IMG/VR virus record: IMGVR_UViG_3300028260_000001
Coordinates: 120,333-184,332 of that record
DNA: 64,000 nucleotides
Source of the DNA: a virus
Lineage: Duplodnaviria; Heunggongvirae; Uroviricota; Caudoviricetes
Reading direction: 5' to 3' (one strand)
The notes beneath the pieces are model-generated. The model was not told the origin of the DNA. It worked only from the letters and a program-made list of their open reading frames with translations, and made no database searches. The position numbers and the translations under genes are program-made. This document shows, piece by piece, positions 2,631 through 52,843 of this stretch (positions are counted from its first letter, which is position 1; each line of letters opens with the position of its first letter).

Positions 2631-3590
2631 TCATTCAATGTAAAGGTGATCGGTACGAACCATAGACGCATCACCTGCCTTACCTAAACCGTTGAAGAAG
2701 TGGAACTCTCCATTCTCAACTGCTGAAGCGAAACCACCACGTTTGGTTAGCGTATCGCCAGTAAGGGTAAGATTACGCCAACTGTTTAGTCCAGGGATGT
2801 ATTCCCAGAAGTCAGCTAAGGAATCTGTAGCGTTACCATCCGTATAACCGCCGAACACATAGAACTTGCCATAAGCTGGAAGCAAACAGGAATAGCATCG
2901 AATGGCAGGTTGTGTGGCTGGAGCAACAAATCCGTTGTATACGTTATCGCCGATGGTATAACGAATTATGTCGTTATTCGTTTTAGATCCACCGTTAGTC
3001 AACCCACCGAAAATATAAACCCCAGTACCAGAAATTGCGATAGCGTGTCCATGTCTGGATTCTGGCAATTGTGCAATCACACGCCAAGTATTATTTGAAA
3101 TGGTGTAGACATCGGCTAACCTTAATTGCGGTGTAGCTTGAGTACCGTTCCAGCCACCAAAGAAATAGATCTCTCCTTGGTATACAACTGCACCATGGTA
3201 AGTACGTCCCAAGTTCGGAGTAGGGGTAAGAGAAGTCCAAGTGTCTGTAGCAATGTCGTAAGCATGCAACTCTTTGGTATAGGTCGATGAGTTGACCGTA
3301 TTACCGGAGAATAGATAGATCTTTCCATTCCAGTAAGACAGTGTACCACCTGACCGACCATTTGGTAAGTTAGCTAAGTTCACCCACTGTCGTGTAGTAA
3401 GATCAAATCTTCGGAAAGTCGATATTGCACCACCACTACCATCCTGAAGTCGACCACCTCCAAGGTATATACCACCGTTACAGCCAATGGCCATAGCTCC
3501 AGAGTTGCCGGGTAATAGGTCACCAACCAACGTTACGCGAGTCTCTAATTTCTTAGGGGGCTTCCCAGGAAATAATAATTGTTCAAACAT
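2631..3590 (-). CDS. Kelch-repeat beta-propeller protein (galactose-oxidase-like fold), probable receptor-binding/tail-associated
   Basis: Repeated GG....Y..D/N..T..W blades (YDIATDTWTSL, FDLTTRQWVNL, YTISNNTWRVI). Confidence 0.65.
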   Translation of the reverse strand: MFEQLLFPGKPPKKLETRVTLVGDLLPGNSGAMAIGCNGGIYLGGGRLQDGSGGAISTFRRFDLTTRQWVNLANLPNGRSGGTLSYWNGKIYLFSGNTVNSSTYTKELHAYDIATDTWTSLTPTPNLGRTYHGAVVYQGEIYFFGGWNGTQATPQLRLADVYTISNNTWRVIAQLPESRHGHAIAISGTGVYIFGGLTNGGSKTNNDIIRYTIGDNVYNGFVAPATQPAIRCYSCLLPAYGKFYVFGGYTDGNATDSLADFWEYIPGLNSWRNLTLTGDTLTKRGGFASAVENGEFHFFNGLGKAGDASMVRTDHLYIE

Positions 3591-3638
3591 CAGAATATAC
3601 CTAAGGCTAAGTCTTATAGGATGTCGGGAAAAAATACT

Positions 3639-3658
3639 ACGAGTATAATAATATACGA

Positions 3659-3659
<1 letters not shown>
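3639..3659 (+). promoter_or_regulatory. promoter candidate for tRNA cluster 2 (TATAAT at 3644-3649 + conserved TATACGAG)
   Basis: Perfect -10 hexamer 10 nt before the tRNA 5' end; 20-mer shared with 813-832. Confidence 0.4.
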
Positions 3660-3743
<84 letters not shown>

Positions 3744-3750
3744 ATTACCA

Positions 3751-3840
3751 GGAAGTATGGCCGAGTGGTCAATGGCTCGGGCCTTGAAAACCCGCGACCC
3801 TTAAGTGGGTCCTAGAGTTCGAATCTCTATGCTTCCGCCA
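3751..3840 (+). tRNA. tRNA-Ser (anticodon TGA), class II
   Basis: Acceptor GGAAGTA/TGCTTCC, loop CUUGAAA (31-39 C-A mismatch), 18-nt variable arm, T-loop TTCGAAT, G73, CCA. Confidence 0.8.
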
Positions 3841-3848
3841 GTTACAAA

Positions 3849-3934
3849 GCTGAGATGGCAGAGTGGTTGAATGCACGGGATTGCAAATCCTGCATCGAAA
3901 GATCTCGGGGGTTCGAATCCCTCTCTCAGCTCCA
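3849..3934 (+). tRNA. atypical class II (long variable arm, Ser/Leu-like body) tRNA with anticodon GCA (would read Cys codons UGY); discriminator U73
   Basis: Acceptor GCTGAGA/TCTCAGC, D-arm TGGCAGAGTGGTTGAATGCA, anticodon stem CGGGA/TCCTG with loop UUGCAAA, variable arm ATC-GAAA-GAT hairpin, T-arm GGGGGTTCGAATCCCTC, TCCA. Confidence 0.6.
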
Positions 3935-3935
3935 A

Positions 3936-4011
3936 GCCGCTATAGCTCAGTTGGTAGAGCAGCTGACTTGTAATCAGCAGGTCCCCGGTTCGAATCCGTG
4001 TGGCGGCACCA
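3936..4011 (+). tRNA. tRNA-Thr (anticodon TGT)
   Basis: Acceptor GCCGCTA/TGGCGGC, loop CUUGUAA, T-loop GGTTCGAATCC, CCA; 1-nt spacer to previous tRNA. Confidence 0.85.
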
Positions 4012-4090: not shown

Positions 4091-4471
4091 ATGACTCCAG
4101 AAACACTGCGTCGCCGTATTAACAATCGCCTGCTCTCTGCGGAACAACATCGTGAAATAACACAACGATTAGTAGCAGCGCAAAAGACTAAAGTAGTTCA
4201 GGTAGCCTTGCCACCTCCAACCCAAGAATGTGTGGTTGCTTACGGTTCTCGGCTAACTCCATTGCTTACACCACTGCTGGGAGATTGTACTTGGACTGAC
4301 GCCCAAATGGCGGCTGTAATCGAATCCAAGTTATATGAAGTTCGTAAGCAATTCCATGGGCCGAACAAAAGTTATGCTGACCCAGTACCTTCAGTAGAGA
4401 TCTGCGATGCTGGCCGCAGTCGATATTTCCGTCTGCTATTAAATGGTTACGAGATCGGGACTATTGGCTAA
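4091..4471 (+). CDS. hypothetical protein, translationally coupled (TAATG) to the radical SAM gene
   Basis: 126-aa ORF; AGGAAT RBS-like upstream; stop overlaps the next start. Confidence 0.55.
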   Translation: MTPETLRRRINNRLLSAEQHREITQRLVAAQKTKVVQVALPPPTQECVVAYGSRLTPLLTPLLGDCTWTDAQMAAVIESKLYEVRKQFHGPNKSYADPVPSVEICDAGRSRYFRLLLNGYEIGTIG

Positions 4472-5373
4472 TGGAAAATAAATTGATCTTCCGCGAACAT
4501 TGGTCTGAACTTGATCGGTCAGTAAACTTCGAACATCGTTTGGAAGATGGACCAGGTATGTTGGAAGCGCGGTATGTCCAACGGACTGACGATTACTTCA
4601 TCGTTTACCTGTCTTCTCAGACTGGATGTGAACAAGCCTGTCGTATGTGTTGGTTGACTCAAACAGGACAGAACAAATCTCGTGACGTTACTGTGGACGA
4701 ATATCTGCAACAAGCCGAACGAGTAATGGAACACTACGGACGACGGCTGTCTTACACCGGTAAGTTTGCTAATAAGGTCCACTTCAACTTCATGGCCCGT
4801 GGTGAACCATTGGCTAATAAGATCTTCTTGGAGAATGCCGATGAGATCTTGGGCCGCCTGCGGGACCTCGCAAAGAAATGGGCATTGACACCTAAGTTTT
4901 TGATCTCTACGATCATGCCTAAGGAGATGGGTGACTTAGCCCTGACAGATATCTTCAAAGACCCCAGCGTGTATCCTGAACTTTACTACTCAATGTATTC
5001 CACAGAGGTGAAGTTCCGTAAGCGTTGGTTGCCAAAAGCAATACCGTGTAACAATGCCTTGCGTATGCTCCGACAATGGCAAGAGCAAACAGGCAAAATC
5101 CCCAAGATTCATTACGCCTTTATCGATGGAGAAAATGACTCTGTAGACAATGTACTCGACTGCTGTAACATGGTCTATGCCTACGGTCTCACTGTGAACT
5201 GGAACATCGTACGTTACAACCCGCCGGAAGGACATGACTCAAAAGAACCACCAGAAGAATACATCTACTTCCTAGCGGATGTAATTCGAAACTTCCCTAA
5301 CGTAGGAAAGGTTAAAGTGATCCCTCGGGTGGGCACAGATGTAAAAGCTTCATGCGGTACATTCCTGAAATAA
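4471..5373 (+). CDS. radical SAM RlmN/Cfr-family RNA (adenine-C2/C8) methyltransferase-like enzyme
   Basis: LSSQTGCEQACRMCW (Cx3Cx2C as in RlmN SSQVGCALECKFC), MARGEPL, WNIVRYNPPEG and C-terminal ASCG each match an RlmN block. Confidence 0.75.
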   Translation: MENKLIFREHWSELDRSVNFEHRLEDGPGMLEARYVQRTDDYFIVYLSSQTGCEQACRMCWLTQTGQNKSRDVTVDEYLQQAERVMEHYGRRLSYTGKFANKVHFNFMARGEPLANKIFLENADEILGRLRDLAKKWALTPKFLISTIMPKEMGDLALTDIFKDPSVYPELYYSMYSTEVKFRKRWLPKAIPCNNALRMLRQWQEQTGKIPKIHYAFIDGENDSVDNVLDCCNMVYAYGLTVNWNIVRYNPPEGHDSKEPPEEYIYFLADVIRNFPNVGKVKVIPRVGTDVKASCGTFLK

Positions 5374-5676
5374 AATACTAGGAGTGTAATGTTATGAAAT
5401 AAACTGGTCTTAGCGGTTTACCAGTTCGGGCGGAAGGCCACTAATAACGGAGTCTGTCAAGCTCCTTACCGCAGCCTGGATTAGAGAGTGACTTCATTAA
5501 TCTGGGTAAGTCGTGTTGGATATCCGTGAGCATCCGTCGCCAGAGCCTCCCGTATGGGGAGGACAGACTGAGTTGCGAACTACCCCAATGCGGTGACTGG
5601 ACTTATCAATCTATTAACACGGAGGACGCTCTGTGTGTTAGACGATAATCTCTGGTTCTACTATATGGCATACGGT

Positions 5677-5700
5677 CTTCCCTGCGGGGAAGGCTTTATG
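5677..5700 (+). repeat. intergenic hairpin cassette (UGCG loop) + CTTTATGTCG
   Basis: CTTCCC-TGCG-GGGAAG followed by GCTTTATG; a 14-codon ORF 5698-5742 starts at the ATG. Confidence 0.5.
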
Positions 5701-5767
5701 TCGTTAAAAGAATACTCGTCAGGATACAGTATACTGGACTAACCGTTGACAACTACAAGGAAATGCA

Positions 5768-6124
5768 ATGGCATTTTCGCCTGTCAATGGAATCAGTAAC
5801 ATGTTTCACGAAACCTGGAAAGAAAACGGTCTTCAACAAATGCTCGAAGATTTTCGAATCGACGAGTCGGTAATCGCTGGCTGTGACATTGTTCACGCTT
5901 ATTACCACGATGATTATAGTAACTACTGCGGTAAAGCATACGTGCTATTCGTCAAAGATGGTAAGTACTACGAAGTCTTCGGATCTCATTGTTCATGCAT
6001 GGGCCTCGAAGATCAGTGGGAGCCGGAAGAAGTCACGCTGGAGTTCTTGTTAAAAGGACAGGCGAGTACTTACGACCGAGGTGATTACCATGAAGACTTA
6101 CAAACTTACTTGGCCAACCGTTAG
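5768..6124 (+). CDS. hypothetical protein (Cys/His-rich)
   Basis: 118-aa ORF with GGAAATGCAATG RBS spacing. Confidence 0.5.
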   Translation: MAFSPVNGISNMFHETWKENGLQQMLEDFRIDESVIAGCDIVHAYYHDDYSNYCGKAYVLFVKDGKYYEVFGSHCSCMGLEDQWEPEEVTLEFLLKGQASTYDRGDYHEDLQTYLANR

Positions 6125-6135
6125 TCTAGTTGTAG

Positions 6136-6161
6136 GGGAGGCTTCGGCCTCCTTTATTTCG
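6136..6161 (+). repeat. intergenic hairpin cassette (UUCG loop) + TTTATTTCG
   Basis: GGGAGGC-TTCG-GCCTCC then TTTATTTCG (variant of TTTATGCCG). Confidence 0.5.
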
Positions 6162-6190
6162 CAATCTCAATTCTTACGCGAGGTATCGCA

Positions 6191-6538
6191 ATGAAATGGG
6201 AACTTGGGCGTCAAGGAACAGGTTACGAAAAACTGAAGTTGATAAACCGTTGGCGGTACTTCAGTCGTTTCAAATGGGATCTCTACTTATTGCGATATCG
6301 GGTAGGTGCAGGGATACCACGGCATCGTGATCCATTGCCAGATCACAGTCACTACAGATTAAACATCTACTTGTGGAATGCACAAGCAGGTGGTGTACCA
6401 GAACACGATGATGTGATCATAAGCAATCGCTTCTTCACATTGTTCCGTCCTGATCTACACACTCACAGCGTAAGCCAAGTAACTAAAGGTACTCGTTACG
6501 TCCTTAGTTTTGGTTTGTCTAAACGCAATACCCTTTAA
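6191..6538 (+). CDS. small 2OG-Fe(II) oxygenase-like (double-stranded beta-helix) protein
   Basis: H-R-D ... H(THS) ... R-Y-V-L-S arrangement matches the HxD/H/RxS facial triad spacing; only 115 aa. Confidence 0.5.
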   Translation: MKWELGRQGTGYEKLKLINRWRYFSRFKWDLYLLRYRVGAGIPRHRDPLPDHSHYRLNIYLWNAQAGGVPEHDDVIISNRFFTLFRPDLHTHSVSQVTKGTRYVLSFGLSKRNTL

Positions 6539-6563
6539 ACTCTATTCCATCCGCGAGAGCTAT

Positions 6564-7826
6564 ATGAAACAGACACGTACATTCGAAATCATCGGCGGTG
6601 AACCAGCTCCAGGTTCCAAGCCAATCAAAGGCTGGACCGTTGGTGTTCCAGTTGAACCCGATGCGGTTAAGCAACTCAAGAACATTGCATCGCTACCGTT
6701 CATCTATTCCCACATTGCTGTGATGCCCGATGTACATCTGGGTAAAGGTGCAACGGTAGGTTCTGTGGTTGCCACCAAAGGTGCAATCATTCCAGCAGCT
6801 GTAGGTGTTGACATCGGCTGTGGAATGGCGGCACAACGTTTGACCTTTAAGTCGACCGCACTACCAGAGTCCTTGGGTCATCTGCGTGCAGCTATCGAAG
6901 CAGCCGTTCCACATGGCCGTACTGATAACGGCGGTAAGAATGACCGTGGTGCTTTCGGTACTGTAAAGGTATTCGATCACCCAGTCAAAGCTATTCGTGA
7001 CGAAGCATTCGAACTTCGTAAGCAACTGGATTGGATCTGTGAGAAACATCCTAAGTTGGCTAAAGCAGCACAGCGTGCATGGAATCACGTAGGTACTCTC
7101 GGTACTGGTAACCACTTCATCGAACTGTGTCTGGATGAAACTGATCAAGTGTGGGTAATGCTGCATTCTGGTTCGCGTGGTATTGGTAACGCAATCGGCA
7201 CTTACTTCATCGCCAAGGCAAAAGAAGAGATGCAACGTTTCTTCATCCATCTGCCAGATGGTGACCTCGCTTACTTGCCAGAAGGCTCGAAGTATTACCA
7301 AGACTACATTGGTGCTGTATCGTGGGCACAACGGTTTGCTGCACTGAACCGTTCTTTGATGATGCATGCCACCTTGGGTGCAATCCACAACGTACTGGGT
7401 CTGCCGATCGATTCAGATATGGGTGCGATCAACTGTCACCACAACTACGTGTCGGAAGAACGACACATGGGTAACAACGTACTCGTTACTCGTAAGGGTG
7501 CCGTAAACGCTTCTCAAGGGGTGTTGGGTATTATCCCTGGGTCGATGGGTGCAAAGTCCTTTATCGTTCGTGGTAAGGGTAACCGTGATTCGTTCTGCTC
7601 GTGTTCGCATGGCGCAGGTCGAGTGATGTCTCGTACCCAAGCAGCTAAAACCTTTACGCTCGAAGATCACATCCGTGATACCGCGGGTGTAGAATGCCGT
7701 AAGGATATCGACGTGATCGATGAAACTCCAAAGGCATACAAGAACATCGAAGACGTAATGGCTGCACAAGAAGAACTGGTAGAAATCGTTCATACGCTCA
7801 AACAGTTCCTTTGTGTAAAGGGGTGA
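6564..7826 (+). CDS. rtcB: RtcB RNA 3'-phosphate/2',3'-cyclic-phosphate-5'-OH ligase
   Basis: Hallmark motifs MPDVHLGKG, GVDIGCGM, SHGAGR; start placed at MKQTRT (GAGAG RBS) although the ORF opens at 6510. Confidence 0.85.
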   Translation: MKQTRTFEIIGGEPAPGSKPIKGWTVGVPVEPDAVKQLKNIASLPFIYSHIAVMPDVHLGKGATVGSVVATKGAIIPAAVGVDIGCGMAAQRLTFKSTALPESLGHLRAAIEAAVPHGRTDNGGKNDRGAFGTVKVFDHPVKAIRDEAFELRKQLDWICEKHPKLAKAAQRAWNHVGTLGTGNHFIELCLDETDQVWVMLHSGSRGIGNAIGTYFIAKAKEEMQRFFIHLPDGDLAYLPEGSKYYQDYIGAVSWAQRFAALNRSLMMHATLGAIHNVLGLPIDSDMGAINCHHNYVSEERHMGNNVLVTRKGAVNASQGVLGIIPGSMGAKSFIVRGKGNRDSFCSCSHGAGRVMSRTQAAKTFTLEDHIRDTAGVECRKDIDVIDETPKAYKNIEDVMAAQEELVEIVHTLKQFLCVKG

Positions 7827-7827
7827 C

Positions 7828-8796
7828 ATGGACTACATCAAGTATTGTGCGGCTGTCGATGCAGCCGCCTTGCGGTTCGTGAGTGAGGTAGCTGGACTAT
7901 GTTATCTCACCCAACAACAAATCGCAGTGTACATCATCGGACGTACTAATGAGGTCATTCGTGAGGCTTACCCACACGCAGAGATCTCTACCGATTACCG
8001 AACTTATTATGATCTACATGAGCTCGGTGTTTGGGATCATTACGTCACAACTACAATCCAACAAAATGGCCGCGCCTTCTATTACGAGACATTGATCCGT
8101 TACAAAGATGGCGAATACAAACACATCCAAAGAGAGGCACCACTCATCGTGCAATTCCAAGAACGCGCTCAACAATACGCTGTAACTGAATTCCGTGAAC
8201 TGAGTGGGAATTCGTCCCTCTCTACTTCCGAGTTCCTTAACCAACTGGAAGAACGGATCGCAGGGCGACTGGAAGACTACTACAGTCGTGAAGGTTTCGA
8301 AGTGTCCATTACAGCACACATCGGACTGAGTACCAGCTACACCATTCAAATCGAAGATCCAGCAGACGGACAAGAGGTTACCGTGGAAATCAAATCCACT
8401 CCATACGTAGAAGATGCACCTGTAACGCTCCCACCATTCATCCTCGAAGTTGAAGGTGAAAAACGCGGTGAGTGTTTCGAACTGAATATCAAAGATACCA
8501 CCGAAGCACAGGAACGTCTGACCAAAGTACAAGCGATTGTTGAAATCGTTAAACGTACGCAAGACAAACTCAGTGATATCCATTTGGAGCTCGAGGATCG
8601 TCTCGACGAAGAAGGTATTGCTGAGCAGATCCGTATAGACATCCATGCTTGGCTCGGCGCTGTCTTTGGGGAAAAGTTCACGTTCACTGTCCGTGTGGAA
8701 ACTACTGACGAACGTATTACTGTGTACGTCGAAGAAGCGTACAGTGGATGCAAAACTCGTCTCCGTTCAACTCGTAAACTGGAACCACAAGAATGA
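7828..8796 (+). CDS. hypothetical acidic protein
   Basis: 322-aa ORF, start 2 nt after the rtcB stop; no recognisable motif. Confidence 0.55.
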   Translation: MDYIKYCAAVDAAALRFVSEVAGLCYLTQQQIAVYIIGRTNEVIREAYPHAEISTDYRTYYDLHELGVWDHYVTTTIQQNGRAFYYETLIRYKDGEYKHIQREAPLIVQFQERAQQYAVTEFRELSGNSSLSTSEFLNQLEERIAGRLEDYYSREGFEVSITAHIGLSTSYTIQIEDPADGQEVTVEIKSTPYVEDAPVTLPPFILEVEGEKRGECFELNIKDTTEAQERLTKVQAIVEIVKRTQDKLSDIHLELEDRLDEEGIAEQIRIDIHAWLGAVFGEKFTFTVRVETTDERITVYVEEAYSGCKTRLRSTRKLEPQE

Positions 8797-9206
8797 AAAA
8801 GTTTCTCGTAGGTGCATTAGCCCTCGTGATGGTTGGCTGTTCACCTGCCTACGCCGCTAGTGTAGTAGAGCAACATTCCGCTTGGGTAGAAAACGCTAAC
8901 TGCGTACAAGTGGGTAAGAATGAATCCCTCTCGGGTGGCCTCGTAGGAGGCGCCCTGGGTGGTGCTGGGGGTGCACTGGTAGGTAGTATCTTCGGTAAGA
9001 AGGGACGTACCTTAGGTGCTATCGCTGGTGGTCTGGGAGGTGCCGCATATGGTGCCTCTGGCAACAAGATCTACAACTGCACGGTACTAGCTCGTCTGAA
9101 AGATGGCGAGAAAGTAATGGTCTCCAAACAAACAGAACAACCGATCGAACCGAACACTACCATGGGTGTGGTGAAGATGTCCGACGGTTCCTATCAAGCT
9201 CTCTAA
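8793..9206 (+). CDS. glycine-zipper lipoprotein (SlyB/Pcp-like)
   Basis: Signal peptide with lipobox LVMVGC; GGALGGAGGALVGSIFG glycine zipper; ATGA overlap with the upstream gene. Confidence 0.6.
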   Translation: MKKFLVGALALVMVGCSPAYAASVVEQHSAWVENANCVQVGKNESLSGGLVGGALGGAGGALVGSIFGKKGRTLGAIAGGLGGAAYGASGNKIYNCTVLARLKDGEKVMVSKQTEQPIEPNTTMGVVKMSDGSYQAL

Positions 9207-44679: not shown

Positions 44680-46020
44680 TTATTCGTCAGCTTTCTTCAG
44701 CAGGTAGGAGTTCGAGATCGACTTCCACGACATGATCTTGTTACGTGCTTTGAATACCAGACCTTCACGGTAGGTACCTTTCTTCTGGTTAAAGGCACGT
44801 TGGCCCTCAGCCATTTCCAGGATATCCTTGACGGTAGTTTCAGCACCGATGACGAAGTTCTCATCGAATACCGGAACGTAGGTCAGACCGATTTCAGCTA
44901 CGATGCGACGAGCTTCATCCGGCAGGACTTCTTCGCTACCATTGCGGTATACCGAGAAGACGTAGTATTCGTGTTTCTCGACACCCTCGAAGTTCGATTG
45001 GATGTCAGGACCGATCAGCTCACCTTGGAGAGTGATGAACTCACCAGTACGAGCTTGGTAGGCTTTCAGCTTCTGGATGACTTCGTGTTCTTTCACGTAA
45101 CGGGTGAAGTTGTTCTCAGTTACCAGTGCAGCCTTCCGCCATTCAGGCCAGTGTATGCGTTTAACTTTGAACATCTTACGGTTACGAGCCAGGAACGAAC
45201 CAGTCCAATAACGGACTTGATCAAACAGCGACCAAGGAGCATCGTCACCCAGCGACAGCTCGTAGTTACGCGAGCAGACACCAGTACGTACACCATCGTC
45301 GTTGATGCAGAACACAGTCATCGAAGAACCATCCAGCTTGTAGGTTACTTCAAACGAGGTCTGATCTGCTTTTGCAGTAGCGAAAGCAACAGTCTTGTTC
45401 TGTACACGATCTTGATCCGACTTGGTCAGTTGGGCAGGCCATGGCATCAGAGAACCATCCAGACCTTTCAGGATACGGCGAACGAGATTACCATACCAGT
45501 CCGAGGCTACTTCGCCACCCGAACCATCACGCTCACGTTGAGGCTTAGGTTCGTACTTCAGGATACCGAGTTCCAGGGTCACGTTAGTGTCAACCGGAGT
45601 ATCCTTGAACTTCTCAGGTACTGGCACCAGCAGACCTTGCGACAGTTCCTTACGCAGCTTGATGGTTTTCAGACGGTGGTAGTTCTCACCGTTAACCCGA
45701 CGGTTATCGGAACGACGAGCTTCCAGGAAACCAAACAGTTCTACGTTGGACAGCGGGAGCAGAGAGTCAATCTCGCAGTAAATAGCGCGATCACCTTTCT
45801 TGTATTCGCCCAGCTTAACACACAGTTGCCAGCCACCAATTACAGCCAGCTCCAGTGCATCGGCATTGGGGTGCGGAACCACATCGTCAATTTCAACAAT
45901 GCGGGCCAGCTTGCGATCTTTTTCTACAACACCAAAACCTTCACGGATTGGCTTTTCTTCTACAACCACTTCGGTCATTGCATTTTCCTCGTGAGATATT
46001 GAAAGCAGATTCCTCTGCAA
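44680..46020 (-). CDS. ATP-dependent polynucleotide (RNA) ligase-like enzyme with N-terminal extension
   Basis: Nucleotidyltransferase motif I YKLDGSS (KxDGS), motif IV-like EGLVFKAR, terminal lysines; 446 aa. Confidence 0.65.
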   Translation of the reverse strand: MQRNLLSISHEENAMTEVVVEEKPIREGFGVVEKDRKLARIVEIDDVVPHPNADALELAVIGGWQLCVKLGEYKKGDRAIYCEIDSLLPLSNVELFGFLEARRSDNRRVNGENYHRLKTIKLRKELSQGLLVPVPEKFKDTPVDTNVTLELGILKYEPKPQRERDGSGGEVASDWYGNLVRRILKGLDGSLMPWPAQLTKSDQDRVQNKTVAFATAKADQTSFEVTYKLDGSSMTVFCINDDGVRTGVCSRNYELSLGDDAPWSLFDQVRYWTGSFLARNRKMFKVKRIHWPEWRKAALVTENNFTRYVKEHEVIQKLKAYQARTGEFITLQGELIGPDIQSNFEGVEKHEYYVFSVYRNGSEEVLPDEARRIVAEIGLTYVPVFDENFVIGAETTVKDILEMAEGQRAFNQKKGTYREGLVFKARNKIMSWKSISNSYLLKKADE

Positions 46021-46043
46021 TCAATAATCAACACGAGTACTTT

Positions 46044-46430
46044 TTAGCAGCTCACGCGGAACGTATGGGCTTTGTCGTTACTAACACCACCATAGACTTT
46101 AAACTTCCACACGTCATGGCCGATACTAAAACTTGGGTAACGAGCAATGGTTAGTTCAGTATCATCGGGATAAGATTCCTTGATGTGCTTGATAATCTTG
46201 TCAACCGAGTAAGGATGATCCTTCTTATCGATCTCAAGTTTACCCACGGTAGAGCGTTCCCACGACCAACCACGCCAAGGCCACGAACACACCCACCATA
46301 CCCACACGATGGATACGATCAGAAAGTTCGAGAATCCGTTACTCAGGAACCAGAACCACGGGGTGTCTTTAGGCTTACGGCGTTTTGCTTCACCGCCCAC
46401 CATAGACAGAAACATCAACAGCTTTTCCAT
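46044..46430 (-). CDS. hypothetical membrane protein
   Basis: Trp-rich TM segments. Confidence 0.45.
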   Translation of the reverse strand: MEKLLMFLSMVGGEAKRRKPKDTPWFWFLSNGFSNFLIVSIVWVWWVCSWPWRGWSWERSTVGKLEIDKKDHPYSVDKIIKHIKESYPDDTELTIARYPSFSIGHDVWKFKVYGGVSNDKAHTFRVSC

Positions 46431-46849
46431 TACTTCACTTTCTCCAATTCAAAATCAACGTGCTGGTGTTCTGGGATCATGTCGAAGTTACAGATCTCGA
46501 TGACCTTTCCTTTTGTGTCTTTCATCAAGCGTGCAGCCAGTACGAACTTGACACCACGATTAGTGTCGAACTCGTAACGATCACGACAAGGACCATAAGC
46601 CCGTACATCGAATGTTACAGTGTTATCTTCAAACACCGGGTTATGCAGGTCAGCGCACGCTAACGCTGGATTGATTTGACGCATCCGCCACAACACCCGC
46701 TTAGGGTCAGTATAGATACGCAGATTAGGAGTACCGAGTTCACAGATCAACCCATGTACGCCGCGTTTCTCCAGGAGCTTCTCCAGCGCTTGACGGAAGC
46801 CTTCAGGTTTATCCGTGAAATCAATGGTTGTCTTAGTGAAGTATTCCAT
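46430..46849 (-). CDS. hypothetical protein
   Basis: 139 aa. Confidence 0.5.
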   Translation of the reverse strand: MEYFTKTTIDFTDKPEGFRQALEKLLEKRGVHGLICELGTPNLRIYTDPKRVLWRMRQINPALACADLHNPVFEDNTVTFDVRAYGPCRDRYEFDTNRGVKFVLAARLMKDTKGKVIEICNFDMIPEHQHVDFELEKVK

Positions 46850-46851
46850 GC

Positions 46852-47391
46852 TTATAGCACCTTGCAGATTTTAGAACGGGTATCATTACTTACCCAAGCG
46901 GCGTAGACCTTATAAACGTCGGATTGAACAAACAACATATCACCGTCTTTCAATTCACGCTCAACCTTGTCATCACTGAAAGTATGAATCAGTTCCTTGC
47001 CATCAGAAACCATAGCAATGTGATCACGTTTCAAAGCGCCGTCCAACGCCATATTCAAAACACGTTCCCGCATTTCGTTAGACGTGAATCGCATCTTACG
47101 ATCATGGGTAAGACGCATCAGATCTAGACGCGGTTTACCTGTGGCTACCCATTCACCGATGAAATACAATGAGTAAGGGGAGTTAGTTGTGTCGGGGATA
47201 CCCTCACGGTCTAACTTATTCATCAGAGCATCGATGGTTCGATCCGAACTGACAACCAGCATGCTGTCATAGTCCGCCACCGTACGGATAACTGGAGTAT
47301 CGCGAGAACCTGAGAATACAGGATGCTTGGTCAGGTTGAAAAGGGTGATGCGTTCTTCAAGCGAAAGTTTGCGAGTCATTGCCAGATCCAT
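46852..47391 (-). CDS. hypothetical protein
   Basis: 179 aa. Confidence 0.5.
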   Translation of the reverse strand: MDLAMTRKLSLEERITLFNLTKHPVFSGSRDTPVIRTVADYDSMLVVSSDRTIDALMNKLDREGIPDTTNSPYSLYFIGEWVATGKPRLDLMRLTHDRKMRFTSNEMRERVLNMALDGALKRDHIAMVSDGKELIHTFSDDKVERELKDGDMLFVQSDVYKVYAAWVSNDTRSKICKVL

Positions 47392-47594
47392 TTAAGAGGG
47401 GTTGAGCTGAATAAGCTAACCAGGTACAATGTGCACCAAGCGCTTATTGCGACAAGTGGGGGAACATACCACCAGCTAAATATTTCTTTGTACTTCTTTT
47501 TGTCGGATTGCAGTATTGCCACCAGTACGATTACAATCATACCCAGTGTACCTATGGATGCTAACGCGATTCCTGCTTCGGCTAGTACAGACAT
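47376..47594 (-). CDS. hypothetical small membrane protein
   Basis: Start at the second ATG (GGAGG RBS). Confidence 0.4.
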   Translation of the reverse strand: MSVLAEAGIALASIGTLGMIVIVLVAILQSDKKKYKEIFSWWYVPPLVAISAWCTLYLVSLFSSTPLKWIWQ

Positions 47595-47604
47595 GTTACC
47601 TCCA

Positions 47605-47630
47605 GACATAAAGCTCTCCCGAAGGAGAGC
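47605..47630 (-). repeat. hairpin cassette (ACATAAA + GCTCTCC-CGAA-GGAGAGC)
   Basis: Same hairpin core as 11005. Confidence 0.5.
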
Positions 47631-47640
47631 CTTTTTGACG

Positions 47641-49041
47641 TTAAACAGCTACGGGGGCTTCGATAGCAGGATCAGGATCGTAACCGATTACTTCCAGGTC
47701 ACGCCACGTCAGATCCAGCACCGATGTACCTACAGGTTGGTTGATCTTCAGTCGAGGCATCTCACGAGGTGTACGATAGAGCTGGGTAGTTACTTGGGCT
47801 TGATGGTTGTTGTAGATATGTGCATCACCTACAACGTGAATCAGTTCCTCACCCCAGTAGTTCAGTTCATGGGCGATCTTGTGGGTCAGCGAAGAATAGA
47901 ACGTAAGATTATACGGCGCACCCAGGAATGCATCGTTACTACGCATGTACACCAGACACTTCAATGCACGGCGTGGGATCAGGCGACTATCCATGTAACT
48001 GTGCATTTTATCTTCATCCAAATGCACACACTCGTCACGCTTTCTCACAAACGCTTCATGCGGTAGGGGTTCAGTGATTGGGTAGTCTGGAGTTTCACTT
48101 TGCTCAGGACCATGCTTCAACATCTGGATGTGTTGACTTAGAGCTTCGTTATACTGTACCTTCATGATCATCCAGCGCTCATTCACACTCAGTTCACGAG
48201 TCCAGAACTGGATGAACGAATGGCATGGTGGTAACGCTTGCTCATCGAGATAAGCTGGGTTCCATGGACACAGAATGTGACGACGAGAATCCGGATTCTC
48301 ACGTAACCCATCGATCAGATCAGTGAATTGGTCAATACGACGAGTAATAACCGCTAGTGGTTTACCAGTGACTTCACCAACCATCACAAAGCCGCGATCC
48401 AAATACGGTTGTAGTTCATCAGTATCCGCAATCAGACGAGTGTCTTCGATGCTACGGAACATCTGTCCGTATACTGCACCGAGTTCGCCTTCCACTACGG
48501 TCTGCGTTGGGACACCAACCATCTCATAGAAAATCGACCAAGCACTATGGGAATAGTCACATTCCATTCGACCGGTTTCTGCTGGATGCTTATGGTAGAT
48601 AGCGTACGCCTGACCGGGGAACACATAAACAACGAAGTGATCGTTGTCCCCTACCAATTCACCTTCTGGCTGGGCCTGTGGGTTATAGGCGCTGTGGTAT
48701 GGATCTTTCCATCCGAAGTGTGTACGGCGGTAATTGCGTTCCATCTCCTTCTGAGTAGCTGGACGATACACACCTGTACCAGCTTTAACCCATTCGTCCC
48801 AAATGCTAACATTGTTCTCTTTCAAGAACTTAACGTTAGTATCGCCAGACAACATCCAGTCTTCTTCAACGAAGCCAGTCTTCAGGTGCAGCTTTTTGGA
48901 TTGCACAGCAGCCAAGCGATTGTTGCTGATATCGTAACGACGTACTACCCCAAACTTAGATGTAGTGCCAGTGCCTGTACGATCACCTTTAGGAACGCCG
49001 TCTTGCAGGATTTCTTCAAGGTAAGAATGATATTGTTCCAT
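47641..49041 (-). CDS. thymidylate synthase family enzyme (ThyA / dNMP hydroxymethylase-like) with two large insertions
   Basis: Aligned by eye to ThyA: DRTGTGT, GDTNVKFLKENNVSIWDEW, ENPDSRRHILCPWNP, LPPCHSF(IQF), C-terminal IGYDPDPAIEAPVAV. Insertions of about 110 and 70 aa; 466 aa total. Confidence 0.75.
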   Translation of the reverse strand: MEQYHSYLEEILQDGVPKGDRTGTGTTSKFGVVRRYDISNNRLAAVQSKKLHLKTGFVEEDWMLSGDTNVKFLKENNVSIWDEWVKAGTGVYRPATQKEMERNYRRTHFGWKDPYHSAYNPQAQPEGELVGDNDHFVVYVFPGQAYAIYHKHPAETGRMECDYSHSAWSIFYEMVGVPTQTVVEGELGAVYGQMFRSIEDTRLIADTDELQPYLDRGFVMVGEVTGKPLAVITRRIDQFTDLIDGLRENPDSRRHILCPWNPAYLDEQALPPCHSFIQFWTRELSVNERWMIMKVQYNEALSQHIQMLKHGPEQSETPDYPITEPLPHEAFVRKRDECVHLDEDKMHSYMDSRLIPRRALKCLVYMRSNDAFLGAPYNLTFYSSLTHKIAHELNYWGEELIHVVGDAHIYNNHQAQVTTQLYRTPREMPRLKINQPVGTSVLDLTWRDLEVIGYDPDPAIEAPVAV

Positions 49042-49064
49042 TGTAGTCCCCTGTTAATAACACA

Positions 49065-49652
49065 CTATTGCCACAGTGCGTCATTTTTCCAGGTATCGTG
49101 GGTTGGGTTGAACAACACACAGAGGGCTTGATCATGGTGTAGTAGCAACACTGGCCATTCCGTGTTCTCACGAAAGCCCCGTTGCACAGCTACCAACGTA
49201 CTGTCCCAGATATCCAGGTCATTGCTCAGATGGATACCTGCGAGGTAATCCGGTACGCGATAAACACCATCGCCTAGTTCCAGGTATGGTTTCTTTTCAA
49301 TGTGCTTTTTCGTAAAGGTCAAACGAACTTTCGCGAATTCAACCAGCGAAAATTTCTCAACCTTCAACCCACCAGTCGAGGAGTTGAACTGGATGGTAGC
49401 CATGAGTTCATCGAAAGGCAACCGATTACGGTAGATGTTGATGTGCTTTCGATCACCATAACTGTGGAACTGAATCTGGAACCCACCTTTCGGCATAGCG
49501 CCATCAGCAGTCAACAAAATACCGCTAACGAAGTCGACGTCTTCACCAATGATATCCCGCTCAGTAATAGTAGTAGAGATATCGAAGTGAACATCCACGT
49601 CGAATTCAACCCGGTTACTTACATCCTTCTTGCAATCTTCACAGCAGCTCAT
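49065..49652 (-). CDS. hypothetical protein
   Basis: Start at MSCCEDCK with AGGAG RBS. Confidence 0.5.
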   Translation of the reverse strand: MSCCEDCKKDVSNRVEFDVDVHFDISTTITERDIIGEDVDFVSGILLTADGAMPKGGFQIQFHSYGDRKHINIYRNRLPFDELMATIQFNSSTGGLKVEKFSLVEFAKVRLTFTKKHIEKKPYLELGDGVYRVPDYLAGIHLSNDLDIWDSTLVAVQRGFRENTEWPVLLLHHDQALCVLFNPTHDTWKNDALWQ

Positions 49653-49688
49653 TTCAGCTCCTAACGACATAAAAGAAAAATAGAGGTT

Positions 49689-49706
49689 GGGGACCCGAAG
49701 GTCCCC
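49689..49706 (-). repeat. hairpin (GGGGACC-CGAA-GGTCCCC)
   Basis: Family member. Confidence 0.5.
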
Positions 49707-49712
49707 TTCCAA

Positions 49713-51539
49713 TTAGGCTTCGACTACCAGTTCATCCAGATCGAATTCTTCCATCTCATCAGCGATGGATTCTTCGATGTAGTTGCGCATGTTAGCCAGA
49801 GTAGTGGTGTGAACGAATTGACCACCCATCCACAGAGGTTTCAGTTCGCCAGACTTGGTAGCCAGATCCAGCCAATCCATGTCGACGCCTTGTGCCAGCT
49901 TGAAGTCGAAGCAATCTTCATCTACCCGCAGGAAACCACGAGCCGATTTCTTCGATGCAGCAGTCTTCGGATCTTTGTACAGTTCCACCAGACGTTCACG
50001 CACTTCACACGCGGTAGCTTTCATAGCCATACCGAAGGTGTCGCGAGTGTTATACTGATAGGTATACGAACCGATACCCAACACGACGTTCGACGAAGCG
50101 AAACCTTTGTTAGCCAGGCGCTGGAAGATCTGTTCGGTGCGTTCTACAGTGATCGAGTCACCATAGATCAGGCCGATGTATTCGTTCAGGACTTTGTAGC
50201 CCTTTCCGTTTACGTGACCACCGAAGGATTCCCACAGCGATTCAATTGCACCGATCGCTTCCGCACGAGACATCTCACGACCAATGTAACTATCAGGATC
50301 ATTCCCAATATAGTCTTGGTTGTCCAACTCGAAATAGCGATCACCGATGCGAATAGCTTCGCCATTGACTGCACACCAACCGATGTTGTACAATGCCTGT
50401 TGGAATGCTGACATCGACTCGTATTCGACCAAGGTAAAGCCAGTGATGACTTTAACAGGATCACCCGAGTCAGGACGCACTACGACTTTCGCCAGACCCA
50501 GAGCGTTCTTCTTACGTGCTTCAATCTCTACCCGCAGAGAAGGCAGTACGTTTGCAATCACACCCCAGAAGTCGAACGAGTCACATACCAGCGACACGAT
50601 ACCTTCGTTGACTTTCTTGCTGATGATCTCCAGGATGAACTCACGTTCACACTGTAGTTTCAGACGATCGATCAAACCAACGTATTGCTCGTGTGGCATT
50701 GCTGCCAGTTCAGCTGGATCAATAGCTTCCAACATGTCTTGCAGGCGCGACAGGATATTCGCAGTAGCTACGGCGTGCTCAGTAGCAGTAACCGAAGCAC
50801 CTACCAGTTCCTTATCGGAATCAGCACCGTACAGCGCTTCGAGGTAGTCGATCGACGGGATGGTATCGGTACCAGCGAATGCCAGCAGGTGACCACCGTT
50901 AGAACGACCAGCAGCTTCTGGACCAGGCATACCACGGAACGAGAAGTCGTGACCTTGGAACAGGATGTGGTCACGGTTATCACAGGTCTTGGCTGCCCAA
51001 CGTTCCATCACACGACGATATTCGTAGGCGATAGTGGCGTTGGTAATTTGCTGCCAGTTGTACGACGACAGGATGGTTTCCAGGTAGTTAACCAACCAGT
51101 AGTGTTCTTTGTGCTCTTCTTCGTTGTACAGTACCCACAGCGGAATACCGATGTTAACGCGTTTGCCTTCTTCCAGAGCCAGCACGGTTACAGGCAGGTA
51201 GCCTACGTCATGCAGTGCAGCGATCTGTTTGACCGAGATGACATCAACACCACAAGCATTGTCGAAGCGACGCTTGATCTTCTTGATGGCCTTCTCTTTT
51301 TCGACCTTGAAGAAGGTACGATCCCACAGCTCAACCAGTTCTTGCCAGGTACCGTAGATACCGAAGTTTACGACTTTGTTGTCGTAGTACGACGAAGCCG
51401 ATTTCGAGCGCATGAAGTTCTTGGCCGAACGCGGGGTGAAGTTCGAATACTTACGGGTGGTGCCTTCCGGGTACAGAGGACCGTGGCCTGGTTTGTAGAA
51501 GTCAGTACCGGTACCAGCTTGAAGCCAAAGTGCAGACAT
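49713..51539 (-). CDS. nadV: nicotinamide phosphoribosyltransferase family protein (NadV / Namat-like)
   Basis: FYKPGH, GHDFSFRGMPGPEAAG, GTDT, VVRPDSGDPVKVI align to NAMPT/NadV blocks; 608 aa. Confidence 0.8.
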   Translation of the reverse strand: MSALWLQAGTGTDFYKPGHGPLYPEGTTRKYSNFTPRSAKNFMRSKSASSYYDNKVVNFGIYGTWQELVELWDRTFFKVEKEKAIKKIKRRFDNACGVDVISVKQIAALHDVGYLPVTVLALEEGKRVNIGIPLWVLYNEEEHKEHYWLVNYLETILSSYNWQQITNATIAYEYRRVMERWAAKTCDNRDHILFQGHDFSFRGMPGPEAAGRSNGGHLLAFAGTDTIPSIDYLEALYGADSDKELVGASVTATEHAVATANILSRLQDMLEAIDPAELAAMPHEQYVGLIDRLKLQCEREFILEIISKKVNEGIVSLVCDSFDFWGVIANVLPSLRVEIEARKKNALGLAKVVVRPDSGDPVKVITGFTLVEYESMSAFQQALYNIGWCAVNGEAIRIGDRYFELDNQDYIGNDPDSYIGREMSRAEAIGAIESLWESFGGHVNGKGYKVLNEYIGLIYGDSITVERTEQIFQRLANKGFASSNVVLGIGSYTYQYNTRDTFGMAMKATACEVRERLVELYKDPKTAASKKSARGFLRVDEDCFDFKLAQGVDMDWLDLATKSGELKPLWMGGQFVHTTTLANMRNYIEESIADEMEEFDLDELVVEA

Positions 51540-51548
51540 GTTGAATCC

Positions 51549-52493
51549 TTAGAGGTGCTTGAATGCGATCAGGTTTTCAGGATTGTTCTCACGGGAAGGC
51601 AGATCCACGTGATAGGTATTCATGGTGTAAACTTTGTCGAAGACATCGGTCAACACATTGATGCCAGCCGAGAAGATGCCGTGAGTGACGTAGAGCGACA
51701 ACGAACCCAGGTCATATTGCTTCAGGACCTTAGCGAGCTCAGTGAAGGTACGGCCACCATCACAGATGTCATCAACGATCAACAGTTCTTCGCCGCGGAG
51801 TTCATCGAGTTCCAGAACTTCTTCACCGCAAACAAAGCTGTCTACAGTAGTGCGCAGGATCTTGCCGTCACGAGTGTTACGTACCTTGTTAGCGTACACA
51901 ACACCTTTGAAGCCGAATTCCTTTGCCAGCGATTCGACTTTCTTACGTGCACCAGCATCTGGAGCAACCAAGATGGTCTTAGCTGGGTTGATTCGATCGA
52001 CACTGCCGATATCTAGCATGTGCTTGCGGAACAGATCATTCAGCGAGAACACACGAGCATTGTTCAGCACCGAACCAATCACGTCAGAGTGAGGGTCTGT
52101 CAGAACAACACGCTCAACATTCAAACTGTTGATGACGTGGGCAAACGCCTTAGCTGAATTCGCTTCACCTGGATTGCACACACGGTCTTGACGAGCGTAT
52201 GGCATGTAGCCGATGTCCAGAGTAATCTGTGGGTTAGCTACGGTCGCGTTTTCACGGATAGCGTTAACAGCCATGATCAAAGACCAAGCAGCAGCTGCGT
52301 CAGGTAGAGCAGCTACAATGCGATAAGTCTCGCCTTTATACCAGACACCCTTGCGACCATGTACATCCTCACGTGGGATAGATACGTTCACTTCACCCGC
52401 AGGGAACATTCGCCCATCGCGGATTTCGGTAGGGAAGGACTGGGAGTGACCCAATCCCTCCTGAGTAACGATCAACTTCAGATTCTGTGTCAT
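51549..52493 (-). CDS. prs: ribose-phosphate pyrophosphokinase family protein (Prs / Adps-like)
   Basis: GEVNVSIPRED, YMPYARQDR, LIVDDICDGGRTF (PRPP-binding loop). Confidence 0.8.
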   Translation of the reverse strand: MTQNLKLIVTQEGLGHSQSFPTEIRDGRMFPAGEVNVSIPREDVHGRKGVWYKGETYRIVAALPDAAAAWSLIMAVNAIRENATVANPQITLDIGYMPYARQDRVCNPGEANSAKAFAHVINSLNVERVVLTDPHSDVIGSVLNNARVFSLNDLFRKHMLDIGSVDRINPAKTILVAPDAGARKKVESLAKEFGFKGVVYANKVRNTRDGKILRTTVDSFVCGEEVLELDELRGEELLIVDDICDGGRTFTELAKVLKQYDLGSLSLYVTHGIFSAGINVLTDVFDKVYTMNTYHVDLPSRENNPENLIAFKHL

Positions 52494-52834
52494 GCAGCTT
52501 CCTTTTGTTCCATTGCAAAGTCGGCATCGAAAAGCAACTCGACATCACCGAGCTTCGTTTTGATGTTGCTATCAGCTTCGTACCGGCAAGTCTCCAGATC
52601 CATAACCAGATCTGTTTCCTGATCACCACAGCGTACCAGGAAACGTGCAACCTTGCCAAGTTCAACACCACGAGCGATAACTTCAACTTCGTTCGTGAGT
52701 ACATGTTCGCCATGATAAGCAGCAACGAACTTAACCGAAACCACTTTCGCTCCTTCAGTAACAAAGAAGCGATCTTTGTGGTAAGTCATTTCATCAGGCA
52801 GTACGCGGAAAAAGTGATGCAGTTTTGGTTCCAT
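52490..52834 (-). CDS. hypothetical protein (coupled to prs-like gene)
   Basis: ATGA overlap with the downstream start. Confidence 0.45.
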   Translation of the reverse strand: MEPKLHHFFRVLPDEMTYHKDRFFVTEGAKVVSVKFVAAYHGEHVLTNEVEVIARGVELGKVARFLVRCGDQETDLVMDLETCRYEADSNIKTKLGDVELLFDADFAMEQKEAA

Positions 52835-52843
52835 GATATCCTC

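Follow-up and report, generated by a model that had tools for sequence, protein, structure and literature searches.

A short RlmN/Cfr-like radical SAM protein, a conserved structured RNA and RtcB beside tRNA genes of a Pseudomonas jumbo phage

Gene content of the region

The stretch of DNA analyzed here, referred to below as the window, comprises 64,000 nucleotides (positions 120,333 to 184,332) of the IMG/VR virus record IMGVR_UViG_3300028260_000001. Its source is a ~305-kb Pseudomonas jumbo phage of the 201phi2-1/Psa21/D6 type; over its first 9 kb, the window shares ~80% DNA identity with D6, a Pseudomonas phage of 307 kb that infects P. syringae, and the relatives include 201phi2-1, Psa21, Phabio, RVTF4 and Viktualia. 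The subject of this work is an interval downstream of a tRNA cluster, in which a gene for a radical S-adenosylmethionine (SAM) protein, a structured non-coding RNA (ncRNA) and the gene for the RNA ligase RtcB follow one another. An earlier inspection made from the letters and the open reading frames (ORFs) alone, hereafter the sequence-only reading, had described this interval as an RNA modification and repair module consisting of an RlmN-like radical SAM enzyme, a small 2-oxoglutarate (2OG) oxygenase and RtcB. All features listed in it are present, at or very near the positions given, and the occurrence of three enzymes of these superfamilies directly downstream of tRNA genes is confirmed. 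The interval also contains two items that were absent from that description, namely a 395-nt gap with a conserved structured RNA and a 118-aa ORF (5768-6124).

The gene order was established from the ORF list, a tRNA scan with ARAGORN and direct reading of the sequence, and all of the following features lie on the plus strand. A promoter-like motif found by a regular-expression scan (AATACT-N4-GTATAATAATATA, 3633-3655) ends 3 nt before the tRNA-Leu gene that opens tRNA cluster 2 (3659-4011), which encodes Leu(UAG), Ser(UGA), Cys(GCA) and Thr(UGU) tRNAs identified by ARAGORN, by Rfam tRNA matches and by their anticodon loops. The cluster is followed at a distance of 80 nt by a 126-aa lineage-specific ORF (4091-4471), the stop codon of which overlaps the start of the 300-aa radical SAM ORF (4471-5373), assigned below to a short branch of the RlmN/Cfr family. 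The next 395 nt (5374-5767) hold no plus-strand ORF of 50 aa or more. They include a promoter-like motif conserved in homologous loci (AATACTAGGAGTGTAATGTTATG, 5374-5396), the ncRNA itself (5399-5705, ~305 nt), recognized by covariation, folding and conservation, and a further promoter-like motif (5711-5733, regular-expression scan) upstream of the 118-aa ORF. The latter is succeeded by a hairpin, GGAGGC-TTCG-GCCTCC followed by TTTATTT (6137-6159), by a 115-aa minimal 2OG/Fe(II) oxygenase of the PF13640/prolyl-hydroxylase type (6191-6538), by RtcB (6564-7826, 420 aa from the ATG, with an open frame that reaches back to a TTG at 6510) and by a 322-aa ORF (7828-8796), which abuts the RtcB stop codon and follows RtcB in related cassettes as well.

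A short branch of RlmN/Cfr-like radical SAM proteins

The 300-aa protein carries the cluster motif CX3CX2C (C53, C57, C60) and a C-terminal cysteine, Cys295, in the sequence 'ASCG', which aligns with the methyl-carrier Cys355 of E. coli RlmN (the corresponding sequences of Cfr and RlmN being 'AACG' or 'AGCG'). It matches positions 78-341 of the 355-position RlmN model TIGR00048 with E=4e-17, the Cfr models with ~41-43 bits and E ~1e-11, and, among PDB chains, those of Cfr (9p0p) and of RlmN with E values of 2e-8 to 5e-4; a radical SAM core with CX3CX2C homologous to that of RlmN is present. Both matches to curated families fall below the respective cutoffs, with 62.1 bits against 290 for TIGR00048 and 40.9 bits against 550 for the Cfr model TIGR04432. 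The Pfam search gave no match to the RlmN_N domain (PF21016), the aligned region beginning only near RlmN model position 78, and three independent alignments place a tyrosine, Tyr46, at the position of the resolving Cys118 of RlmN, seven residues before the first cluster cysteine. An equivalent of Cys118 is not present in the window protein or in any relative checked.

These departures from RlmN and Cfr characterize a broad group. A database search returned 2686 relatives, the best 120 of which average ~295 aa; among these 120, the tyrosine at position -7 and 'ASCG' occur together in 118 of the 118 proteins that have the cluster motif. In 144 loci collected from bacterial genomes and viral contigs, the tyrosine is invariant (144/144), and the C-terminal sequence is 'ASCG' in 139 and 'ISCG' in two more. 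The short branch is spread over Planctomycetota, Myxococcota, some Rhizobiales, Actinomycetota and jumbo phages; its viral copies lie almost all on contigs of jumbo-phage size, and it was found in 30 of 50,697 phage records. The gene is also carried by two ~1-Mb Pseudomonas plasmids, pMPCFBP13716 (971 kb, locus L045) and pPLMAXa (949 kb, locus L050), where it is flanked by proteins without Pfam matches; the plasmid context is uninformative. Apparent second radical SAM genes upstream in cellular loci proved to be wrong-frame, arginine-rich ORFs in high-GC DNA.

The branch shares with the class A enzymes RlmN and Cfr (TIGR00048, TIGR04432; structures 3rfa, 5hr7, 9p0p) the radical SAM core with CX3CX2C, homology over ~260 residues, the beta-extension before the cluster motif and the C-terminal 'xxCG' cysteine, which is the methyl carrier in RlmN. 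It differs from them in the absence of the HhH-like RlmN_N domain, in the invariant tyrosine in place of Cys118 and in its low score with the RlmN model, and also in that the two coexist: on a contig of a Myxococcota metagenome-assembled genome (JAWKRQ010000103; L006, 4008-6888), a canonical rlmN with an RlmN_N domain, an S4/pseudouridine synthase gene and the short radical SAM gene lie in a row on one strand. This arrangement suggests a role of the short protein in RNA modification, and, since a canonical rlmN is encoded beside it, the short protein would be a paralogue with a role of its own rather than a replacement. Because it lacks the RlmN_N domain and has tyrosine at the position of the resolving cysteine, the window protein is best regarded as a remote homologue of RlmN and Cfr that belongs to an uncharacterized short branch, and not as an orthologue of either. 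The label "RlmN/Cfr-type" of the sequence-only reading thus stands as to homology, the cluster motif and the C-terminal cysteine, and fails as to orthology with either enzyme. Our literature search found nothing relevant on phage RlmN-like proteins.

In the RlmN mechanism, the methylated C-terminal cysteine forms an adduct with the adenine ring, and this adduct is resolved by Cys118; loss of Cys118 traps a covalent enzyme-RNA adduct. If this mechanism holds for the short branch, its members would have to resolve the adduct otherwise, possibly via the invariant tyrosine, or leave it in place. Since the tyrosine stands for the resolving cysteine and the N-terminal RNA-binding domain is missing, either the target or the resolution step is likely to differ from those of RlmN and Cfr. 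The same two features, the first of them seen in every relative examined, would also be expected if the protein were not an RNA methyltransferase at all, but acted on some other substrate or deliberately formed a stable covalent adduct with a target RNA, and the fact that most cellular genomes show no conserved RNA-related neighborhood agrees with this as well. We nevertheless consider this explanation unlikely, given that the methyl-carrier cysteine and the RlmN-type core are retained over ~260 residues, that rlmN, a pseudouridine synthase gene and the short gene form a row in the Myxococcota contig, and that the phage copies are enriched on jumbo-phage-sized contigs, jumbo phages being a group that commonly encodes tRNAs of its own.

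The 126-aa ORF upstream of the radical SAM gene had been proposed to encode a translationally coupled partner. The overlap of its stop codon with the ATG of the radical SAM gene, in TAATG, is real, but the partner is lineage-specific. The 126-aa protein has no match in Pfam, PHROG or NCBIfam, and a word-indexed search of 5.8 billion proteins matched it only to itself; relatives of it (29-41% identity) are confined to D6-like loci, the corresponding position in RVTF4 is devoid of an ORF, and the protein is without similarity to Psa21 gp399. A small ORF that abuts or overlaps the start of the radical SAM gene is nevertheless found in nearly all loci of the Pseudomonas clade (L001, L007, L082-L093, L151-L158). 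The upstream small ORFs of 15 loci fall into at least 4 unrelated groups, with hhalign probabilities below 5% and no BLASTP similarity between groups, and a conserved partner was rejected on all these grounds. The slot before the radical SAM gene is conserved, and the protein that occupies it is not.

A structured RNA between the radical SAM and RtcB genes

The ncRNA is conserved in D6, RVTF4, Psa21 and five metagenomic phage contigs (L083, L088, L089, L092, L158) and is structured. The minimum free energy of the region, compared with shuffled sequence, gives z=-3.65 on the plus strand and z=-0.84 on the minus strand. The 5' domain consists of three hairpins: P1 with ..GCGGUUU.. in its loop, P2 with a 5-bp stem and a 7-nt loop C(U/C/A)GUCAA, and P3 with the loop GUGAC(A/U); the 3' end is formed by a GC-rich hairpin followed by UUUAU. 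Across the homologous loci the stems vary by compensatory substitution while the loop sequences are fixed. In the alignment, which was fitted to the model, 90.8% of cells are paired, against 31-47% in slid controls, and all 18 of the 18 modelled pairs show double (compensatory) changes; none of 500 shuffles reached the observed values. A covariance model of the 5' domain recovered all eight seed copies together with an independent copy in L158 (E=1e-8), and nothing further in 375 kb of related phage DNA.

The possibility that this is a copy of a known RNA family was ruled out by several negative results. Rfam gave no match to the window copy at E values up to 10 and none at gathering thresholds to seven homologous loci; ARAGORN found no tmRNA; blastn against 50,697 phage genomes matched only D6 and Psa21; and nothing on this RNA was found in the literature.

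The motif that immediately precedes the ncRNA belongs to a small set. A regular-expression scan for the 23-nt pattern AATACT-N4-6-GTRTAAT..TATR found four copies in the whole window, all on the plus strand, at 803-825, 3633-3655, 5374-5396 and 5711-5733, which precede tRNA-Trp, tRNA cluster 2, the ncRNA and the 118-aa ORF, respectively. The pattern is a candidate phage promoter class, largely dedicated to RNA genes.

By nhmmer and the covariance model, the ncRNA was found solely in loci where a radical SAM gene is followed by RtcB. It was not found in the searched loci that have the radical SAM gene without RtcB (201phi2-1, Phabio, L084, L086, L090, L093, L151-L156), nor in the three searched loci that have RtcB without the radical SAM gene. 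Bacterial operons that combine Rsr (Ro60), Y RNA (YrlA) and RtcB provide a precedent, in which, as here, a structured non-coding RNA is encoded beside RtcB. By this logic, the ncRNA could be the center of a ribonucleoprotein, scaffolding or targeting RtcB and perhaps the radical SAM protein, or could act through P2 as a decoy for host anticodon nucleases. The restriction of the RNA to loci where the two genes are adjacent, its invariant loops and covarying stems, the promoter motif that it shares with the tRNA clusters and the Ro/Y-RNA/RtcB linkage known in bacteria and some phages all speak for such a complex. P2 resembles an anticodon arm, with a 5-bp stem and the 7-nt loop CUGUCAA, which leaves room for the speculation that the RNA imitates the anticodon loops of Asp/His-type tRNAs; however, U33 of this loop varies, and the loop of P3 is 6 nt long instead of 7. 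The phage locus differs from the bacterial operons in that it has no Ro protein nearby, no YrlA match and no tRNA-like module: TROVE had no match among the eleven plus-strand ORFs scanned between 302 and 10985, the single weak YrlA match overlaps tRNA genes, with nothing in the ncRNA region, and no tRNA-like Rfam family was matched. Furthermore, because all carriers belong to one subclade, the co-occurrence of the ncRNA with the radical SAM and RtcB genes may be explained by phylogeny alone. We therefore rate the ribonucleoprotein as improbable.

RtcB and the second RNA ligase

RtcB is the least controversial component of the interval. The full-length profile PF01139 is matched (1-426 of 426 positions, E=4e-128, 428.6 bits against a cutoff of 27), and the motifs 'MPDVHLGKG', 'GVDIGCGM', 'GTGNHF', 'HSGSRG' and 'SHGAGR', which we take to be those of the metal-binding and guanylyl-histidine residues, align with the solved RtcB structures of T. 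thermophilus and P. horikoshii. Translation probably starts not at the TTG at 6510 but at the ATG at 6564, which gives a protein of 420 aa, as long as that of D6. The protein is 83-85% identical to RtcB of D6 and Psa21, and relatives occur in 408 phage records (tblastn, E<1e-40). It is thus a canonical RNA 3'-P/5'-OH ligase of a kind common in phages (PF01139; phrog_1075), and its identification in the sequence-only reading was correct, if ordinary. A jumbo-phage comparative study interpreted RtcB and ATP-dependent ligases encoded near the tRNA genes of phages as equipment for repairing tRNAs and other RNAs against host ribonucleases (PMC7824862), and countering ribotoxins is the role generally accepted for an RtcB in this position in jumbo phages.

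RtcB of the Ralstonia phages RP12 (L148, 4983-6251) and RP31 is 82.7% identical to the window protein, that is, as close as the Pseudomonas relatives are, which suggests recent exchange of RtcB between jumbo phages of different hosts.

What is peculiar to RtcB here is its position. Related chimalliviruses keep it beside phosphoribosyl pyrophosphate (PRPP) synthetase, NAMPT and RNA ligase genes: it heads the PRPP synthetase/NAMPT array in RP12, Viktualia and HPP-Temi, with the RNA ligase following in RP12 and HPP-Temi. The window has a corresponding array on the minus strand (44680-55583), in which genes for an SspB-like protein, a BCS1-like AAA ATPase, PRPP synthetase (51549-52493), NAMPT of NAD salvage (49713-51539), ThyA (47641-49041) and an Rnl5-like ligase (44680-46020) have been recognized; RtcB is missing from it and located 45 kb away. 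Judged from these gene orders, RtcB has evidently been relocated to the tRNA and radical SAM region in the present subclade.

The minus-strand ligase had been noted as a KxDGS-type enzyme, and this assignment was borne out. The protein combines a PF09414 RNA_ligase domain, with the motif KLDGSS, and an N-terminal OB domain (PF21189, PHA02142), and it matches the RNA ligase of Naegleria gruberi (Rnl5; 5cot) with E=2.5e-41. Both have the N-terminal OB domain followed by the KxDG nucleotidyltransferase domain, the phage ligase being ~100 residues longer owing to an insert. Its gene is located at a distance of 37 kb from the radical SAM/RtcB interval, in the NAD-salvage/ThyA array. Motif scans for polynucleotide kinase and HAD phosphatase were negative throughout the window, in agreement with the earlier observation that no kinase could be spotted; the sole ORF with a Walker-A motif encodes the BCS1-like AAA ATPase.

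A minimal oxygenase of the prolyl-hydroxylase type

The 115-aa protein retains the residues expected of a 2OG/Fe(II) oxygenase, H45-x-D47 and H92 being invariant and R102 at least 90% conserved in an alignment of 40 relatives. Its match to PF13640 is below the gathering score (E=1.2e-3, 20.2 bits against 27), whereas 30 of the 40 relatives match this family, the best with E 5e-8, and the AlphaFold model (pLDDT 94.6) is a small double-stranded beta-helix. At the level of superfamilies, the assignments of both the oxygenase and the radical SAM protein hold. There was no match to the AlkB family, and the profile of the oxygenase family matched no PDB sequence; the protein groups with PF13640 and with prolyl and protein hydroxylases (OGFOD1, 4nhx; PBCV-1 vCPH, 5c5t; Pseudomonas P4H, 4iw3; PHD, 6f0w; PiuC, 9qn0), with which it shares the double-stranded beta-helix, the HxD...H motif and an arginine at the 2OG-binding position. 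It is a minimal oxygenase of the prolyl-hydroxylase type and not of the AlkB type. The HxD...H...R triad and the superfamily proposed by the sequence-only reading are correct; its hint at demethylation of nucleic acids fails, since protein hydroxylation is the activity of its nearest characterized relatives, with several of the substrates belonging to the translation apparatus.

Relatives of the oxygenase number 93 and come from phages (Lu11, Phabio, RP12 and others), Microbulbifer and one archaeon. It was found in 27 of 50,697 phage records and, like the radical SAM protein, is indeed the unusual phage cargo that it had been supposed to be. In the window, D6, RVTF4, L083 and Viktualia, the gene is the immediate upstream neighbor of RtcB; it is missing from the cassettes of Psa21, L088, L089 and L092, is unlinked to RtcB in RP12 and is unlinked to the radical SAM gene in Phabio.

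Conservation and organization of the cassette

The order of radical SAM gene, ncRNA and RtcB is shared by nine loci: the window, D6, RVTF4, Psa21, L083, L088, L089, L092 and L158. The gene order of D6 equals that of the window, and RVTF4, Psa21 and the five metagenomic contigs are alike, with some genes present or absent. Outside this set the components part: 201phi2-1, Phabio and ~50 other viral loci have the radical SAM gene without RtcB, and other chimalliviruses have RtcB without the radical SAM gene in the array described above. These comparisons indicate that the gene set is not a conserved operon and that linkage is found only within one subclade. Within the window, the genes are distributed over separate apparent transcription units, split by promoter motifs and terminator hairpins. 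That the interval is one coordinated gene set is therefore not shown: its components lie in separate apparent units and travel independently in related phages.

The region may alternatively be an assemblage of unrelated cargo, gathered in a plastic part of the genome rich in tRNA and HNH genes, with adjacency devoid of functional meaning. HNH endonucleases have inserted in D6 and Psa21, tRNA sets differ among relatives, the oxygenase and the 118-aa ORF come and go, the small ORF before the radical SAM gene has been drawn from at least 4 unrelated families, and RtcB has evidently been transferred from the array that other chimalliviruses keep. Chance accumulation accounts less readily for the order radical SAM gene-ncRNA-RtcB, which is kept in nine loci although their radical SAM proteins are only 61-66% identical to that of the window, for the restriction of the ncRNA to loci where both genes are present, and for the fact that all identifiable functions of the region concern RNA or translation. 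Such hitch-hiking is a possibility to be taken seriously, though we think it doubtful.

tRNA genes and the proposed tRNA-maintenance programme

The window encodes six tRNAs, Trp(CCA), Leu(UAA), Leu(UAG), Ser(UGA), Cys(GCA) and Thr(UGU). Tests of the idea that the radical SAM protein installs 2-methyladenosine at position 37 (m2A37) on phage tRNAs can be made against this list. The E. coli carriers of m2A37 are the Arg(ICG), Asp, Gln, Glu and His tRNAs, and the window tRNAs have anticodons that end in A or U, or in G followed by G37. Because no tRNA of the m2A37 class, as known from E. coli, is encoded in the window or in related loci, the idea is a poor fit to phage tRNAs.

The sequence-only reading had gone further and united the genes into a programme that keeps phage or host tRNAs functional: the RlmN-like enzyme would install m2A37, the oxygenase would demethylate or hydroxylate RNA, and RtcB with the second ligase would repair the damage done by anticodon nucleases. 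The location directly downstream of four tRNA genes, the same order in D6, RVTF4 and L083, the homology of the radical SAM protein to RlmN and the presence of both RtcB and an Rnl5-like ligase fit such a programme, and its RtcB part is sound and already known. The remainder has fared worse. The radical SAM protein is not RlmN, having neither Cys118 nor RlmN_N and scoring 62 bits against 290; the phage tRNAs fall outside the m2A37 class; the oxygenase is of the P4H type, without an AlkB-family match; the partner of the radical SAM protein is not conserved; promoter motifs and terminator hairpins separate the genes, which occur independently in related phages; and the second ligase belongs to another conserved array, at a distance of 37 kb. 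An integrated programme of this kind now seems quite unlikely.

The tRNA-Cys(GCA) gene (3849-3934) is itself atypical. It is 86 nt long, with a ~15-nt variable arm that gives it a class II shape and with U73 as the discriminator, whereas bacterial tRNA-Cys is normally class I; this feature is kept in four related phage loci (L001, 7217-7303; L009, 5774-5861; L083, 1493-1579; L089, 5434-5520).

Other genes of the region

The domain of the 118-aa protein, with its invariant H-C-S-C motif, belongs to a family of 1828 representative clusters, for which there is no Pfam model and no structural neighbor; in one 3623-aa protein (P0298) it is repeated seven times. The ORF that overlaps the stop codon of the 322-aa ORF behind RtcB (8793-9206) encodes a 137-aa protein that combines a glycine-zipper domain (phrog_15869) with a lipoprotein-like signal at its N terminus. 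A six-bladed Kelch-repeat protein, annotated as galactose oxidase in D6, is encoded on the minus strand between the two tRNA clusters (2631-3590), and a protein with an F5/8 type C (discoidin) domain is encoded on the plus strand at 302-796.

Discussion

The account that we favor, with confidence slightly better than even, is that the interval is an RNA-centered accessory island, assembled in one phage lineage and expressed from several transcription units rather than from one operon. The first unit would comprise the tRNA cluster, which has no obvious terminator, followed by the small variable ORF and the short radical SAM gene; the second, the ~305-nt ncRNA, with its own promoter motif of the tRNA-cluster type and its own terminator; the third, the gene for the 118-aa protein; and the fourth, the genes for the oxygenase, RtcB and the 322-aa protein. 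Each of the proteins assigned here belongs to the family named for it, and the cassette is conserved within one subclade.

In such an island, RtcB would reseal tRNAs, or other RNAs, at the 2',3'-cyclic-phosphate and 5'-OH ends left by metal-independent ribonucleases of the host. The radical SAM protein may C-methylate adenine in RNA, relying on the [4Fe-4S]/SAM site together with the C-terminal cysteine that the branch conserves. The ncRNA would serve one of the island enzymes as substrate, guide or decoy, and the oxygenase would more probably hydroxylate a protein, perhaps one that takes part in translation, than a nucleic acid.

Several observations weigh against this account, in which the activities of the island enzymes are inferred. 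Loss of Cys118 traps the adduct in RlmN, and therefore catalytic methylation by the short branch is not assured. The neighborhoods of the radical SAM gene give little sign of an RNA function elsewhere: all-against-all clustering of ~77 cellular loci found no RNA-related conserved neighbor except in the Myxococcota locus and recovered lineage synteny only, in the form of a leucine-rich-repeat protein and a sulfotransferase-like protein encoded on the opposite strand, and only 6 of the ~50 more distant viral loci have tRNA genes at 6 kb or less from the radical SAM gene. Finally, the linkage of RtcB to the radical SAM gene and to the oxygenase gene may reflect shared descent rather than function, because it is confined to one close subclade.

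A more specific proposal, which we put forward tentatively and with low confidence, is that the short radical SAM proteins represent a third functional type of class A enzyme, distinguished by the invariant tyrosine and by either a new RNA target or a new fate of the enzyme-RNA adduct, which would be resolved by another route or kept, and that in one phage subclade the protein works with the ncRNA and RtcB as an RNA-based unit.

Whereas RtcB beside phage tRNAs is textbook material that adds little, the RlmN/Cfr-like branch with tyrosine in place of the resolving cysteine and the unannotated structured RNA are new objects of study. If the assignments made here are true, the tyrosine-for-cysteine branch may test the two-cysteine rule, bears directly on the chemistry by which class A radical SAM methylases are defined, and points to a modification of RNA, or of another substrate, that has not been sought in bacteria and jumbo phages. 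The ncRNA between the radical SAM and RtcB genes would likewise be an entry point to an RNA-based system of phage counter-defense or translation control, and, with Psa21 and D6 isolated on named Pseudomonas syringae hosts, it is open to direct study.

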